DNA of 64,000 nucleotides from a virus. Taxonomy: Duplodnaviria > Caudoviricetes. Both the position numbers and the translations under genes were made by a program. Within the stretch, counting starts at the first letter, position 1, and every line of letters begins with the position of its first letter. Positions 30,039 to 34,603 of this stretch are shown in pieces. The notes under the pieces are model-generated. The model saw only the letters and a program-made list of their open reading frames with translations, was not told the origin of the DNA and searched no databases. The stretch lies in IMG/VR virus record IMGVR_UViG_3300028591_000128, positions 1 through 64,000 of that record; one strand, written 5' to 3'.

Positions 30039-30396
30039 GTTTGATGCCTATGTAATGTTACATGTCGTAAATTCAAATCCTTACTATTGACAAATGTATT
30101 TTATGTTTGACACCTGTGCAATTTCATAGTCTACCAAAACGGATACGCCTAAACCGTACGCTAGTTTGACACCTATGCAATTTCATAGTATATCAAAACC
30201 TTTGATGATTGAATAGCGTCCAACCTTAAGTTTGACACCTGTGCAATTTAACATGTTATCAAAACTCTGATAGTAGATCAATTTCCATTGTCCACGTTTG
30301 ACACCTATGTAAATTCACAGTATACCAAACTGTATAAGAACTCAGCTGCAAGTATCCTATGTTTGATACCTATGTAATTTCGCACTGTATCAAAAC
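30039..30396 (-). CRISPR. CRISPR array A: 6 repeats, 5 spacers
   Basis: 35-36-nt repeats (plus strand GTTTGACACCTRTGYAATTT....TATCAAAAC) starting at 30039 (degenerate), 30105, 30164, 30230, 30296, 30361; spacers 30, 23, 30, 30, 30 nt. Confidence 0.92.
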
Positions 30397-30510
30397 CTCA
30401 AATCACACATGTATTCAGTTTTGATAACATATTTTACAAAGGCTTGGTGAGTGCGTTACGACTAAATCTGAGTAAAGTCTACCTCACCATAAGGTTGTCA
30501 AATCAACCCC
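30397..30510 (-). ncRNA. tracrRNA-like module A plus leader ending ATTTGAG
   Basis: 5' hairpin GGTTG-ATTTGA-CAACC, GGTGAG/CTCACC stem, anti-repeat GCCTTTGTAA..ATGTTATCAAAAC. Confidence 0.8.
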
Positions 30511-30558
30511 ATATATAAATATTTAAATTTTAATTGTATGTAACAACATATTCTTCTG

Positions 30559-32031
30559 GTGAACTCTCCACCACCTATAGAGGCTGGTGGCTTCGTAAGA
30601 AGGTTGATATTTAAGTTTCCACCTAAAATTAGGCAATCCTTATTCTTACAGGCGTGTCCACTTCGCCGCTACCGTATAGGACTGTTAAATCCACAACGCT
30701 ACTTTTTCTTAAAATATTCAACGCACCATTGACATCTGCGTTAAGTAATATTCCGTCAGCAGTTTTGTACAACCCCCTGCGTACACGTGTTCCGCTGAAT
30801 TCATATGACTGCGGATTATCTGCATTGTATACGGGGATGTTATCATGATCCCAGAATGATGCTTGTGAAGTATAGCTTTCTTCTTGCTTGACAAAAATAA
30901 TGCTGTTCAGTTCACAAAGATATTCCAGTTTGGAACGCAGTTTACCATATGGAATATTGACAAAGTTCTGATTGTTACGCTTGTCCATACTAGAATTACG
31001 TTGAAATGTTTCATTATATCCGATTACAAGCGTTCCAATATCATGAGCAATACAATAATTAGTAATTTTTCTTGCAGTTTTGCTCATATAATCGTTGACT
31101 GTTCTGTTTCTTTTATCAGCTAAGATTTTCTGACGATTTGTTGTTCTTCTTTTATCACCCTGTCTGTATTTGATACATTGCAGCCGTGCATTTTCTTTGT
31201 TGAACCATTGATTGATAGATTTAAGTCTTCTCCCATCAATAATGAATGATCTGCCAGTGCTTGATACTGCGGTTACAAGATTATTCACACCTAAATCCAA
31301 AGCAAGTGCATTGTTTTTATTAAGATTTCTTTGAGTACATTCAGTTTCGTAAGTATACTGAATTTCAAAGAACCTTGCTTCCGATTTTGGAATGATTCTG
31401 ATTTCCTTGATATGCTTGTCAGCAAGTATCGGCGGCATTTTGATTTCAACAGGCTTGTGTGTTTTCCTGAATGCATTGGAATATGGAAGAATCAGTTTGT
31501 TCCCATTCAATCGGACAAATCCTATCACGAGTGTTGTGAATCCGTCTTTAGGAAGATACTGTGGTAATTTACAGTCTCTAAAAGAATATTTTCCTTTTTT
31601 CGCAAGTTTCAGCAGTCCGAAAAAACTTTTGAACGATCCGTCTACTTCTTTCAAAATCTGCTGTGCCATATTAGAGTTGAGCATTTTGTAATTTGGACTG
31701 TCTTTCAGCAATGCATAATTCTTTTCGTATTTCAGATATTCTCCTTCTGTGAAGTAATACTGACGGACATTGTAAATTGCTTCATTAGCAAGGTTTTTTG
31801 CTGTGTGGCACAATTCTCTCAAAATGCCGTATTCTTCTTTTGACAGATGTTTCACTTTTTGCTTTACCGTTAGATACATAGTTTTCCTCCTTCCTTTTAG
31901 ATTTAGGACATTTTCCATGTATCTATTACAACATACATTTTACTGATTGTCAATAGTTTCAGTAAAAACAATCTGCATTCATCCACCACTTTTGCTTTGC
32001 TTAGAAGTGGTGGTATTCTGCCGAAAATTGG
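30559..32031 (-). mobile_element. IS200/IS605-family (IS1341-like, tnpB-only) insertion sequence
   Basis: Left-end hairpin CCACCACTT...AAGTGGTGG near TTTAT; right-end hairpin CCACCA..TGGTGG ending GTTCAC; removal restores ATCAGAAGAAT, also seen upstream of module B. Confidence 0.8.
30629..31879 (-). CDS. tnpB: RNA-guided endonuclease TnpB
   Basis: Start MYLTVKQ after AGGAGG; RuvC-I LALDLGVNN, QEESYTS (rearranged RuvC-II Glu), RuvC-III NADVNGALNI. Confidence 0.92.
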   Translation of the reverse strand: MYLTVKQKVKHLSKEEYGILRELCHTAKNLANEAIYNVRQYYFTEGEYLKYEKNYALLKDSPNYKMLNSNMAQQILKEVDGSFKSFFGLLKLAKKGKYSFRDCKLPQYLPKDGFTTLVIGFVRLNGNKLILPYSNAFRKTHKPVEIKMPPILADKHIKEIRIIPKSEARFFEIQYTYETECTQRNLNKNNALALDLGVNNLVTAVSSTGRSFIIDGRRLKSINQWFNKENARLQCIKYRQGDKRRTTNRQKILADKRNRTVNDYMSKTARKITNYCIAHDIGTLVIGYNETFQRNSSMDKRNNQNFVNIPYGKLRSKLEYLCELNSIIFVKQEESYTSQASFWDHDNIPVYNADNPQSYEFSGTRVRRGLYKTADGILLNADVNGALNILRKSSVVDLTVLYGSGEVDTPVRIRIA

Positions 32032-32057
32032 ATAAAGTGTAGCACACTCTGTTTTCT

Positions 32058-32799
32058 TTTTGATACCTATGTAATTCCATACCTAAACAAAACATTATTC
32101 CAAGCCAATTAAATCATCCTCTCATTTGACACCTATGTAATTTAATCATCAATCAAAACTTCTGATAAATATGCAGTTGGTGGTCATGATTTGATACCTG
32201 TGTAATTTCATAGTTTATCAAAACTATAACGTATTACCATTGAGTTTGACTATGTTTGATACCTATATAACTTTGCAGTCTGTCAAAACCGGTATCTTAC
32301 CTAAGCCGTTTTCCACAGGTTTGATGCCTATGTAAACTCACAGTCTAACAAAACCAAGATGTTCCTGTCGATGCCATCAAGGAAGTTTGACATCAGTGTA
32401 ATTTCATAGCCCAACAAAACTGATAAGCAAATAAGACGAAAATGCCGCTCAGAGTTTGACACCTATGTAATTTCACAGTCCAACAAAATCCTCAGACAAA
32501 TACCTGTTCGACACCTGTGTAATTTCATCGTCTACCAAAACTCCACAATGATTGACTTGAAATACCCCTTCGTTTGACACCTGTGTAACTTCATGGTTCA
32601 ACAAACCGAACCGCTATCCAAATTACGCTTAGTTTGACACCCGTGTAATTTCACAGTTCATCAAAACAACATATGCATGGGAAATGGAGCCGCCAACGTT
32701 TGACACCTGTGTAATTTCACAGTTCAACAAAACGAATATGCGCTGGAACAGTTCTATCAGAAAGTTTGACACCCGTGTAATTTCACAGTCCAACAAAAC
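32058..32799 (-). CRISPR. CRISPR array B: 12 repeats, 11 spacers
   Basis: Repeats (plus strand consensus GTTTGACACCTGTGTAATTTCACAGTYCAACAAAAC) at 32058, 32124, 32189, 32254, 32319, 32385, 32454, 32506, 32572, 32632, 32698, 32764; spacers 30, 29, 29, 29, 30, 33, 16, 30, 25, 30, 30 nt. Confidence 0.95.
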
Positions 32800-32910
32800 C
32801 TCAAATCACACGTATTCAGTTTTGACAGAGCATATTTACAAAGGCTTGGTGAGTGTGTTATAGATTGGATGTTCAATCATACCTCACCTTAAGGCCGTCA
32901 AATCGGCCCT
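32800..32910 (-). ncRNA. tracrRNA-like module B plus leader ending ATTTGAG
   Basis: 5' hairpin GGCCG-ATTTGA-CGGCC, GGTGAG/CTCACC stem, anti-repeat GCCTTTGTAAAT..CTGTCAAAAC. Confidence 0.8.
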
Positions 32911-32976
32911 GTATATTAAATTTTATATTTGAATTTAACAGATTCTTCTGATTTTCATACACCTCCAGGGCCAGTG

Positions 32977-33125
32977 GTTTGATGCTTATGCTATCCATAG
33001 TTTCAACATTTGACACCTATGCAATCATGATAGTTGAATCATGTAGGATTGCAAGAGCTTAGTGAGTGTGTTACAGACAATGCTGAGACCATCCTGCCTC
33101 ACTTTACGGCTGTCAAATCAGCCGG
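32977..33125 (-). ncRNA. tracrRNA-like module C with fused repeat end and one degenerate repeat
   Basis: GGCTG-ATTTGA-CAGCC hairpin; followed by ATTGCATAGGTGTCAAAT (ends 33008) and a degenerate repeat at 32977-33007. Confidence 0.7.
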
Positions 33126-33147
33126 TTAGTATAATAACAATTCTGCC

Positions 33148-33274
33148 GCTTGATATCTATGTAATTATCTGTATTCCATCAATAACTTTGATATCTACTT
33201 AGACATAGACTCGGTGAGTGCGTTATAAGCAAGAAAAATCTGCTATGCAACACCATAAGGCTGTCAAATCAACC
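33148..33274 (-). ncRNA. tracrRNA-like module D (overlaps the cas12f stop codon) with one degenerate repeat
   Basis: GGTTG-ATTTGA-CAGCC hairpin; anti-repeat TCTATGT complementary to ACATAGA in the repeat at 33148-33186. Confidence 0.65.
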
Positions 33275-34603
33275 AATTACCGTCATATTTTTAGCCTTAT
33301 TATAGGCATGACTTATCGTTTTACCGCAATGAGGACAAGTGAATGATACTTCCTGTGTCCACTCGAATACCTTCGGAATGACTTCTTCTGTACAGAATAC
33401 TTCTCCACATGAACTACATACATTCCGGACTGTCCGAAGAACATCAGTCTTTTTATCTGTCTTATCAGCCATCTTACTTGTGGTTACAACAATACCCTCA
33501 CGTTCTGCCTTATAGGTAATGAACTGCACCAACTGATAATAAGACCAATTCCGGAGCAATACCGGGTAATCATCAAGATCAGACTTCGTTACGTCTTCTA
33601 CAACGATAGCTGATACTTTATTCTCCTTTGCAAACTCTACAACCATTTTACTAAGATTATGGTTATATGTCTGCACATAATTCTTCTCGTAAGATTTATG
33701 TGTTTCAAGTTTTGCCAACTTCTTTCCACGACCATGCCCACCATTGGAATACTTTAAAGCTCTCTGAAGATTCTCAAAGTGGATCTGAATGTCCTTGCGT
33801 TTTGCTACAAGATCATTCTTTATTGATCCACCAATCTCATGTTCATCATCATCTGTAGAAAGTGCGGCAACAAGACATTTATCATATCCAAGAGCAAGTC
33901 CCATGATCTTACCATGTTCAGGTATATATTCTTCTGCATCCTTCTCAATCTTAACGGAAAGATTTAAAATTATCTTACCTTTGTTCGTGATTTGAATCGT
34001 GCTACCACAAACCTTATAATGTTCTGGATCGGTTACAATAGATTCCAAAAGTGATGGAAGGAACTTATCCGGACTCTTATTCTTACCTGCACCAAGATAC
34101 AGCTTGAAATGGATTCCGTTTACAAACTTAAAGAAATAGGCATTTACTGTCTTTTCCGTTCCATCATCTGTAGTGTATGTATCATCACCAGTATAAATAG
34201 TAATGAATCTGCTTGGAACCATAAGTGGGAAATCTCTTTTGTAAAATGGTAGATTCCGCTCACCCTTTGCAAGTCCATTCCTCAATGCTATGGAGAAATC
34301 CTGCTTTACTTTCATACCACAGTTACCAGCCATACCCAAACCCTTTGCCTGTTTCATATCATATATGGCGGTATTTGTGTTCCGGAAGATCATCTTCATC
34401 TCTTCCTTGAAGTTCGGATCGTTGAAATTCTTATCATACTTATAATACAGGCATCCAACCTGTGACATATAAGTATTCAAGATACAATACTGATTGTAGA
34501 TCCCATCACGAAGGTACTGATATACCCTATCCCGTTCTTCTTTATCACCTACCGGGAATAACTGAATCTTCTTCGTTGTGATTGTAGTTGTTTTCTTCTG
34601 CAT
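33269..34603 (-). CDS. cas12f: Cas12f1-like (type V-F) effector, predicted nuclease-dead
   Basis: Family motifs YLRD..YNQY, NGL.KGER....YKRDFPL, GGHGRGKKL, TYNH.LS..VV.FA, LRNWSYYQL...I.YKA.REGI and CxxC/CxxC; RuvC-I reads GLALG (normally GVDLG) and RuvC-III reads SHAYNKAKN (normally NADYNAARN). Confidence 0.88.
   Translation of the reverse strand: MQKKTTTITTKKIQLFPVGDKEERDRVYQYLRDGIYNQYCILNTYMSQVGCLYYKYDKNFNDPNFKEEMKMIFRNTNTAIYDMKQAKGLGMAGNCGMKVKQDFSIALRNGLAKGERNLPFYKRDFPLMVPSRFITIYTGDDTYTTDDGTEKTVNAYFFKFVNGIHFKLYLGAGKNKSPDKFLPSLLESIVTDPEHYKVCGSTIQITNKGKIILNLSVKIEKDAEEYIPEHGKIMGLALGYDKCLVAALSTDDDEHEIGGSIKNDLVAKRKDIQIHFENLQRALKYSNGGHGRGKKLAKLETHKSYEKNYVQTYNHNLSKMVVEFAKENKVSAIVVEDVTKSDLDDYPVLLRNWSYYQLVQFITYKAEREGIVVTTSKMADKTDKKTDVLRTVRNVCSSCGEVFCTEEVIPKVFEWTQEVSFTCPHCGKTISHAYNKAKNMTVIG

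Follow-up and report, generated by a model that had tools for sequence, protein, structure and literature searches.

Can a virus carry a CRISPR effector of one type, and have its arrays written by the adaptation enzymes of another? The question is raised by a locus in the first 64,000 nucleotides (nt), which we call the window, of the IMG/VR record IMGVR_UViG_3300028591_000128. The record, from a gut/rumen phage of the Caudoviricetes, has 106,310 bp and is estimated to be 71% complete. Following the minus strand, the locus presents an open reading frame (ORF) of 444 amino acids (aa), three copies of an element of about 115 nt that resembles a trans-activating CRISPR RNA (tracrRNA), an array of 12 repeats, a 429-aa ORF, a fourth copy of the element, and an array of 6 repeats. 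An earlier note on this sequence had proposed a chimera, in which a captured Cas9-type array is read by Cas12f and kept updatable by the type II-A integrase of the host.

The anatomy of the locus, as described below, we regard as practically settled. The explanation that we favor, with a confidence that is real but modest, is a phage-borne type V-F-like system around a nuclease-dead Cas12f (dCas12f), the arrays of which would be filled in trans by the type II-A Cas1-Cas2 of the host, and the outcome of which would be silencing.

Arrays with type II-A-like signals

Both arrays lie on the minus strand. Array 2 (32058-32799, with its leader-proximal end at 32799) has 12 repeats and 11 spacers, and array 1 (30039-30396) has 6 repeats, with 5 spacers. 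Each of the 18 repeats measures 36 nt and runs GTTTTG...TCAAAC on the minus strand, with consensus GTTTTGATAGACTGTGAAATTACATAGGTGTCAAAC. Within the 106-kb record the repeat is confined to these arrays (18 forward matches, 0 reverse, 0 in the control). The spacers measure 30, 30, 24, 30, 16, 33, 30, 29, 29, 29 and 30 nt in array 2, and 29, 30, 30, 23 and 30 nt in array 1; that is, 8 are of 30 nt, 4 are of 29 nt, and the rest are of 33, 24, 23 and 16 nt. Touching the first repeat of each array, at 32800-32810 for array 2 and at 30397-30407 for array 1, the plus strand reads CTCAAATCACA. On the minus strand this is TGTGATTTGAG, the leader's 3′ end, which has the leader-anchoring ATTTGAG motif of type II-A Group 1. 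Away from that end the repeats decay: identity to the consensus goes from 34-36 of 36 positions at the leader end of array 2 to 26-28 of 36 at its far end, and the last repeat of array 1 is at 24 of 36. The earlier note had started from the GTTT...AAAC termini of the 36-nt repeats, the modal spacer length of about 30 nt, the abutting TGTGATTTGAG and the decay, and all of them hold. The two leader-repeat junctions are not independent observations, because the entire module of tracr-like element, leader and array is duplicated, at about 75-79% identity (families D5-D7).

How well do such signals identify a type II-A array? Group 1 of the type II-A leaders, which comprises 87 of 167 loci in 42 genera, has leaders that end in ATTTGAG, a GAG/GTTT junction, and 36-nt repeats that end in AAAC (Van Orden 2017, PMC5382924). 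We took 29 arrays adjacent to csn2 from two samples of about 400 genomes each. The leader ends exactly in ATTTGAG in 26 of the 29, the junction is GAG/GTTT in all 29, and those with complete consensus repeats have 36-nt repeats and a modal spacer of 30 nt. Our 29 control arrays are those beside the best-scoring Cas2 genes of the same class, and they are all I-C-like. Neither the motif nor the 36/30 geometry occurs in any of these 29 I-C-like arrays (0/29), which have repeats of 32-34 nt, spacers of 33-36 nt, and leader ends such as TTTTTGCT. Thus, both the literature and the csn2-linked arrays confirm that ATTTGAG and the 36/30 geometry are traits of type II-A, as had been assumed.

The signals extend to the whole phage family. 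Among 16 distinct family arrays, from phages at 32-98% protein identity, ATTTGAG is exact in 10 and off by 1-2 nt in the other 6, and across these arrays both the sequence just upstream of the motif and the repeat cores vary freely. Homologues at 57, 51, 46 and 37% identity have the junctions TGATTTTGAG/GCTTTGG, ATATTTGAG/GTTTCAG, AAATTTGAG/GTTTTGG and ATATTTGAG/GGTTTGG (the slash separates leader from repeat), and many IMG/VR phages of 90-190 kb with effector homologues at 32-39% identity have GTGTGATTTGAG/GTTTTAGATATG.... The spacers of the family are mostly of the same length, 65 of the 98 unique ones having 30 nt and 18 having 29 nt. The type II-A likeness is old and family-wide, reaching down to 32-37% protein identity, as opposed to a recent capture in this phage, and in that respect the captured Cas9-type array of the earlier note has to be corrected.

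When the repeats themselves are compared, those of the family are identical to their best type II-A repeat at 20-28 of 36 positions, where shuffled sequences have means of 16-20 with a standard deviation of about 2; the likeness is significant for most arrays. The repeat of the window has 24 of 36 identical positions in the leader orientation and 25-26 of 36 reversed, with a shuffle mean of 18-19, a likeness better than chance but moderate, and of ambiguous orientation. The plus-strand repeat, which the earlier note had likened to GTTTGAGA..TGTGTAATTT repeats of type II-A, is indeed identical at 26 of 36 positions to the csn2-linked GTTTGAGAGTAGTGTAATTTCA type; that likeness comes about because the similarity to type II-A is about equally good in the reverse orientation.

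The earlier note had named clustering with ordinary type V-F repeats as evidence against its reading. The repeats do not resemble those of the nearest characterized V-F1 Cas12f systems, which have 29-32 nt (Kong 2023 Suppl. Data 1, PMC10090079), as compared to 36 nt here. The native RhCas12f1 locus (L275) has 30-nt repeats, 36-37-nt spacers, and a leader of about 230 nt. An ATTTGAG in that leader (L275:3065-3095), 10 nt upstream of the first of the 30-nt repeats (GGTATTTGAGCTAAAGGG/GTTAAAAGC), could be a remnant or chance. Several clostridial Cas12f1 repeats in the Kong 2023 list, GTTTTATCTTAACTATATGGAATGTAAAT for example, look like clostridial type I-B repeats. Such a resemblance would be a hint of other Cas12f arrays, too, taking after an adaptation system that resides with them. 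We do not claim that copying of a co-resident array is general among Cas12f arrays; within the RhCas12f1 genome, no array other than the Cas12f one has the repeat.

Spacer gain at the leader end

Do these arrays acquire new spacers? The relative L011, with 98% effector identity, does not differ from the window through array 1 apart from a single additional unit at the junction, in which a 29-nt spacer sits between two copies of repeat 1 that are identical; all the older repeats differ from one another. The contig L244 carries the same extra leader-proximal unit in array 1. In array 2, the leader-proximal spacers differ among the lineage of the window and L011, L009, and L012, and the older trailer spacers are common to these lineages, with point mutations, some of them occurring also in L010 (82% identity). 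Gain that is polarized to the leader end and duplicates the first repeat, as in type II-A arrays, is thus found in L011 and L244 and in the comparison of the arrays of the relatives. The extra unit and the polarized differences are the signs of an integrase that adds spacers from one end, and that has done so recently. The earlier note had named invariant spacer content among relatives as an observation that would speak against acquisition; we observe that the content varies, with the new units at the leader end.

Array 2 also offers a side observation. Its 16-nt "spacer" AGGTATTTGTCTGAGG (window 32212-32247) reappears as AGGTATTTGTCTGAAG in L012:7736-7760, immediately upstream of what is called as the first repeat in that relative. 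This recurrence suggests that the arrays undergo internal deletions and rearrangements, besides the gains at the leader end.

Neither Cas1 nor Cas2 was detected in the 106-kb record, nor in a relative of 253 kb that is 100% complete. Ten more related phage genomes, of which eight are at least 94% complete, likewise gave no Cas1; the adaptation genes that the earlier note thought might turn up elsewhere in the phage did not. Given the polarized acquisition and no adaptation genes found, acquisition in trans by a host enzyme is well supported, and we hold it very probable that some host integrase performs it. Given the type II-A-type junction and geometry, a type II-A integrase is the best candidate, and we lean, with far less assurance, towards the enzyme being of that type.

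A predicted nuclease-dead Cas12f and its tracr-like RNAs

What, then, reads the arrays? The 444-aa protein (33269-34603, minus strand) has a single Pfam match, Cas12f1-like_TNB (PF07282). Its best relatives with solved structures are RhCas12f1 (9NZP, E-value 1.7e-49) and CnCas12f1 (8HR5, E-value 3e-40), with AsCas12f at an E-value of 1e-19, and the identity of 9NZP as RhCas12f1 was confirmed from the paper and from the native locus. This is a small, TnpB-derived effector, with a RuvC fold and a zinc ribbon, of the V-F1 clade of RhCas12f1 and CnCas12f1. In RuvC-I it has GLALG, versus GVDLG in the sister clade, and its C-terminus has SHAYNKAKN, versus NADFNAARN. In an alignment of 20 homologues (A1), those down to 37% identity have, like the effector, G-x-A/S/V-x-G in RuvC-I and YSYNKAKN in RuvC-III, while the sister clade at about 40% identity retains GVDLG, E and NADFNAA. 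An intact RuvC catalytic triad is found in this alignment neither in the effector nor in its subclade. Since the aspartates of RuvC-I and RuvC-III are lost, the subclade, a large and mostly phage-borne clade of natural dCas12f proteins, is predicted to be nuclease-dead.

The repeated element has a hairpin, GGYYGATTTGACRRCC, and then a GGTGAGG...CACTCACC stem, which is the plan of the validated RhCas12f1 tracrRNA, and both hairpin and stem show compensatory changes between the copies and between relatives. All four copies are on the minus strand. Module A (33187-33301), recognized from repeat families D5/D6 and from the minus-strand read, overlaps the effector gene's 3′ end and has the GGTTGATTTGACAGCC hairpin and CACTCACC stem as in the RhCas12f1 tracrRNA. 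Module B (32965-33130) is joined to a truncated repeat, GATTGCATAGGTGTCAAAT, which is followed by a second degenerate repeat end, GCATCAAAC. Module C (32811-32935) has the hairpin GGCCGATTTGACGGCC, the stem GGTGAGG..CACTCACC, and two anti-repeat segments, CCTTTGTAAAT and GTCAAAAC. Its paralogue, module D (30408-30535), was recognized by comparing repeat families and covariation.

The loop of the tracr hairpin covaries with the repeat's 3′ end, and we observe four states: GATTTGAC with TCAAAC, GACTTTGC with CAAAGC, GATTTTGC with CAAAAC, and GATTTGGC with CCAAAA. As expected of type V-F, a tracr with homology to that of RhCas12f1 lies between gene and array and, by this covariation, has parts that pair with the repeat. 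It follows that the arrays are co-adapted to a tracr of the Cas12f type. They are read from the leader side, each spacer being preceded by the 3′ part of a repeat, in agreement with the proposal that Cas12f reads them. The conservation over the 18 repeats, 94% at positions 1-6, 68% at positions 7-16, and 90% at positions 17-36, fits this reading.

Two further observations concern the modules. Modules A and B (32965-33301) are joined straight to truncated repeats (ATATCAAAG and similar; GATTGCATAGGTGTCAAAT), and then to short fixed sequences or spacers. They look like natural single-guide or omega-RNA-like forms, and for their putative guides, with up to 4 mismatches allowed, the 106 kb of the phage itself contain no target. 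In several relatives, a second tracr-array module is present upstream of the effector gene or further downstream (L161:7823, L163:7668, L165:7772, L196:2845, L159:10176), and thus multiple modules per effector are common in the family.

A candidate target

The extra spacer of L011 and L244 has a 29/29 match outside of any array, in the metagenome contig L243 (OCVV010256606.1):1181-1209. This protospacer is inside a 91-aa ORF, some 60-90 nt upstream of the gene for a D5_N/P4-type primase and divergent from a helix-turn-helix repressor gene. With a repressor and a P4/D5-type primase as neighbors, the target looks like the early region of a temperate-phage or satellite-like element. The CRISPR RNA (crRNA) of the extra spacer would pair with the coding strand of the ORF. 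The protospacer is flanked 5′ by ...TTTTGCC and 3′ by TTTCTC...; one credible protospacer, from one metagenome scan, is too few to call a protospacer-adjacent motif (PAM).

The other searches returned little. Both array regions have only chance matches to GenBank phages (E-values at least 0.8), the 98 family spacers have nothing credible in all the local loci and the whole record, and five spacers scanned in IMG/VR retrieve only the arrays themselves, or no match. The contig L243 has no match to GenBank phages.

Which enzyme writes the arrays?

The explanation that we propose would work as follows. The dCas12f gene (33269-34603) and the tandem tracr-array modules that follow it on the same strand constitute one type V-F-like system. 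The tracr hairpin loop, ATTTGAC, pairs with GTCAAA, the last bases of the repeat, and as a consequence the crRNAs have the type V form, with the 3′ part of the repeat before the spacer. The complex would bind the DNA of competing mobile elements, the result being most likely silencing and not cutting. The arrays bear the signals for type II-A adaptation (the ATTTGAG leader end, GAG/GTTT, 36-nt repeats ending in AAAC, and 30-nt spacers), and new units do enter at the leader-repeat junction, most likely through the Cas1-Cas2 of a type II-A host, with Csn2 and Cas9, in trans. Useful spacers would then be retained by selection. A wider version takes in an entire family of large phages of Clostridia from gut and rumen: the 36-nt repeat would be a two-purpose chimera, its termini and the leader end kept for the Cas1-Cas2-Csn2-Cas9 of the host, and its 3′ two-thirds for the phage's own V-F tracrRNA, so that memory would be outsourced and used to silence rival phages and satellites. 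This version we put forward tentatively, as quite possible but short of probable.

Which hosts could be involved? A relative at 51% identity resides as a prophage in the genome of a rumen Eubacterium sp. / Lachnospiraceae NE2001-like bacterium, which carries the L161-type locus. For host prediction, we compared 386 spacers of the sampled II-A arrays with the phage; the best match, 25/30 in A-rich sequence, was rejected as unconvincing. A looser form of the phage repeat pattern, searched in species genomes, gave mostly single chance matches among the matches listed. A test for co-occurrence of the effector family with Csn2 gave a single match in 400 Clostridia genomes, the RhCas12f1 locus itself, too few for statistics.

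Several points weigh against a type II-A integrase as the writer. No host and no host II-A locus were identified for this phage, and for that reason the identity of the integrase is something that we infer. Of 399 sampled Clostridia genomes, 24 have Csn2, which makes II-A hosts a minority. The exact phage-type repeat pattern has 0 matches in 185,579 species-representative genomes. Adaptation by type II-A in vivo reportedly also requires Cas9, Csn2 and tracrRNA (Heler 2015; Wei 2015). The repeats are moderately like those of type II-A, and since the repeat is quasi-palindromic the reverse orientation scores about as well. Within the arrays, repeats differ by 2-10 substitutions, and therefore acquisition must be rare. 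The lone protospacer has CC directly on its 5′ side, which suits the C-rich PAMs of the RhCas12f1/CnCas12f1 clade, and not a 3′ PAM chosen by Cas9. Finally, at about 20-45 nt the leader is short, and it forms one stretch with the tracr module. In this lineage GTGTGATTT and the repeat core AAATTACAC are complementary, as are TTTG and the CAAA of the repeat. With a leader that continues the tracr and such possible pairing, the motif could be conserved for a reason at the RNA level.

Suppose that it is. ATTTGAG/GTTT would then be the 3′ end of a Cas12f tracr or omega-like scaffold, or its linker to the first repeat, serving as an anti-repeat, as an alternative pseudoknot partner, or as a processing site; the identity with type II-A would be a coincidence or a distant evolutionary echo, and spacers would be gained otherwise. 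The tracr module does run into the motif, with only 8-45 nt in between. Besides the complementarity of GTGTGATTT to AAATTACAC, the fused modules join the leader GTGTGATT directly to GCATAGGTGTCAAA, the motif is retained even at loci with 1-2 repeats, and positions 1-6 are conserved in the old repeats too (94%), matching CAAAAC in the tracr of this lineage. We nevertheless judge this account rather unlikely. The 7-mer is invariant while the adjoining tracr and the repeat cores change, without covariation, for which recognition by a protein on DNA is the better fit; as far as the alignments can tell, this absence of covariation argues against simple pairing as the reason why ATTTGAG is conserved. 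Pairing needs only the TTTG, and leaves the A and the GAG unexplained. It also leaves unexplained the 36/30 geometry, versus 30/36 in the active relative, and the polarized gain with duplication of repeat 1.

If instead the spacers are added by a host integrase of some other type (I-B, I-C, III, II-C or V), or by a II-A-related Cas1 from an undescribed system, the II-A-like junction would be only partly relevant. In favor of this is that Cas2 is far more common than Csn2 in the sampled Clostridia, 136 of 401 genomes versus 24 of 399, and that adaptation across types is known, from IV-A3 arrays with I-E (Benz 2024, cited in PMC11656645) and from VI-B arrays with II-C (PMC8092290). We consider it improbable: none of the sampled controls, which are I-C-like only, resembles the arrays of the phage, and 30-nt spacers with GAG/GTTT fit type II-A specifically. 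An altogether different use of the arrays would be as decoys, with II-A-like repeats that soak up the tracrRNA and Cas9 of the host (an RNA anti-CRISPR), or feed guides chosen by the phage to the host Cas9, dCas12f being secondary. Repeat mimics of phages are reported to inhibit host CRISPR systems (Camara-Wilpert 2023). The repeats do resemble type II-A repeats in both orientations, and Racr RNAs are mentioned in a review on mobile genetic elements (PMC11656645). Against decoys, the repeat's 3′ end covaries with the tracr loop of the phage, and conservation within the repeat is highest over the 20 nt at its 3′ side, the stretch that goes into a type V crRNA. The 5′ half, which is the part that pairs with a Cas9 tracrRNA, is the most variable (68% conservation), and identity to real II-A repeats is only 56-78%; we find this use very hard to credit.

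An insertion between the arrays

The earlier note took the locus for a chimera of type II-A-like arrays and Cas12f. Its proposal is supported in part. The type II-A signals, the reading of the arrays by a Cas12f-type scaffold and the spacer gain all stand; what has to change is that the effector is predicted nuclease-dead, and that between the arrays lies not the Cas12f but the ORF of an unrelated TnpB of the IS605 type. This 429-aa ORF (ORF1, 30629-31918, minus strand) is a canonical TnpB, matching OrfB_IS605 (PF01385) with an E-value of 5e-27, and NF040570 guided_TnpB with 190 bits, for a cutoff of 100. No similarity to the 444-aa effector (ORF2) is detectable. ORF1 is in a 1,497-bp segment, 30562-32058, that has CCACCA...TGGTGG hairpins at both ends and sits exactly after the last repeat of array 2. 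The segment is present in the window and in L011, and absent from L009, L010 and L012; L009 and L012 run uninterrupted from window position 32059 to 30561. We considered ORF1 as a second effector and rejected it, given that it is a canonical TnpB without similarity to ORF2, within an insertion that relatives do without. Thus, 30562-32058 is a TnpB-only insertion of the IS200/IS605 type, and not part of the CRISPR system.

Relation to known systems

How does this locus compare with the systems from which it seems to borrow? With type II-A Group 1 arrays, of the S. thermophilus CRISPR1 type (PMC5382924), it shares ATTTGAG, GAG/GTTT, 36-nt GTTT...AAAC repeats, 30-nt spacers, and gain at the leader end with duplication of repeat 1. 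Unlike those, the phage has no cas9, cas1, cas2 or csn2, a Cas12f-type tracr is directly upstream instead of a Cas9-type tracrRNA, the leader is about 20-45 nt, and the repeats are heterogeneous within an array and 56-78% identical to those of II-A. Given the absent genes and the Cas12f-type tracr, this is not a II-A system; only the array signals are II-A-like. With V-F1 (RhCas12f1, 9NZP, and CnCas12f1, 8HR5; Kong 2023, PMC10090079), it shares the fold family of the effector, a tracr that opens with a GGTTGATTT.GCAACC hairpin plus a GAGG...CACTC stem and makes a pseudoknot with the repeat's 3′ end, and the placement of that tracr between gene and array on the same strand. What differs is that the aspartates of RuvC-I and RuvC-III are missing throughout the subclade, that there are several tracr-array modules in tandem, that a phage is the carrier, and that 36-nt repeats go with 30-nt spacers, versus 29-32-nt repeats with 36-37-nt spacers. 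With catalytic residues lost and a different array geometry, the system is not a canonical V-F one either.

By analogy, the locus would work most like the type IV-A3 systems of plasmids. Those arrays are filled by I-E machinery of the host, nuclease and adaptation module are absent, and rival plasmids are repressed (Benz 2024, as summarized in PMC11656645). Common to both would be a mobile element as carrier, no nuclease, no adaptation module, the silencing of rivals, and arrays that a host system belonging to another type fills. IV-A3 differs in being class 1 (IV-A with DinG), in using a I-E host, in living on plasmids, and in having been shown experimentally, whereas a class 2 dCas12f with a II-A host is what we infer for the phage from its sequence. 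Adaptation by another CRISPR type is likewise the case for VI-B arrays, which are filled by II-C machinery (PMC8092290).

The effector has natural counterparts as well. Bacterial dCas12f proteins that are associated with CRISPR have been noted (Hoffmann 2026, PMC13472631), and TldR, dCas12f-sigmaE, the CRISPR-associated dCas12f and Cas12m (Wiegand 2023; Hoffmann 2026, PMC13472631) have in common with it the loss of RuvC residues with RNA-guided DNA binding kept, and a predicted role in transcriptional control. These counterparts are chromosomal, mostly in Bacteroidetes or Enterobacteria, and mostly have fixed guides or sigma-factor partners; the phage clade is in Clostridia-type hosts and has updatable, multi-spacer arrays. 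The mini-arrays of viruses, reviewed in PMC11656645, are also short viral arrays with no adaptation genes and with spacers against competing elements. Those use the effector of the host too, whereas the phage has its own effector and tracr, of a CRISPR type different from that of the adaptation signals in its arrays. In a limited literature search, we found no published description of a phage-borne dCas12f clade with II-A adaptation signals in its arrays.

If the explanation that we propose, in which a type II-A host fills the arrays of a phage dCas12f, is true, this would be the first cross-type link of type II adaptation with type V interference, and the first on a virus. The stages of adaptation and interference would be shareable between the Cas9 system of a host and a type V effector encoded by its phage, beyond the types present in one cell, and the signals at the leader-repeat junction could be kept for an enzyme that the element itself does not encode. 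ATTTGAG/GTTT beside a foreign repeat body is a concrete and testable substrate for the specificity of the II-A integrase. A phage-borne clade with updatable, multi-spacer arrays would join the naturally nuclease-dead Cas12f proteins, and this compact dCas12f, with its natural tandem tracr-array and fused-guide modules, may interest those who build tools for multiplexed CRISPR interference. For the phages themselves, the locus points to silencing of satellites by phages, or of phages by phages, in rumen and gut communities.

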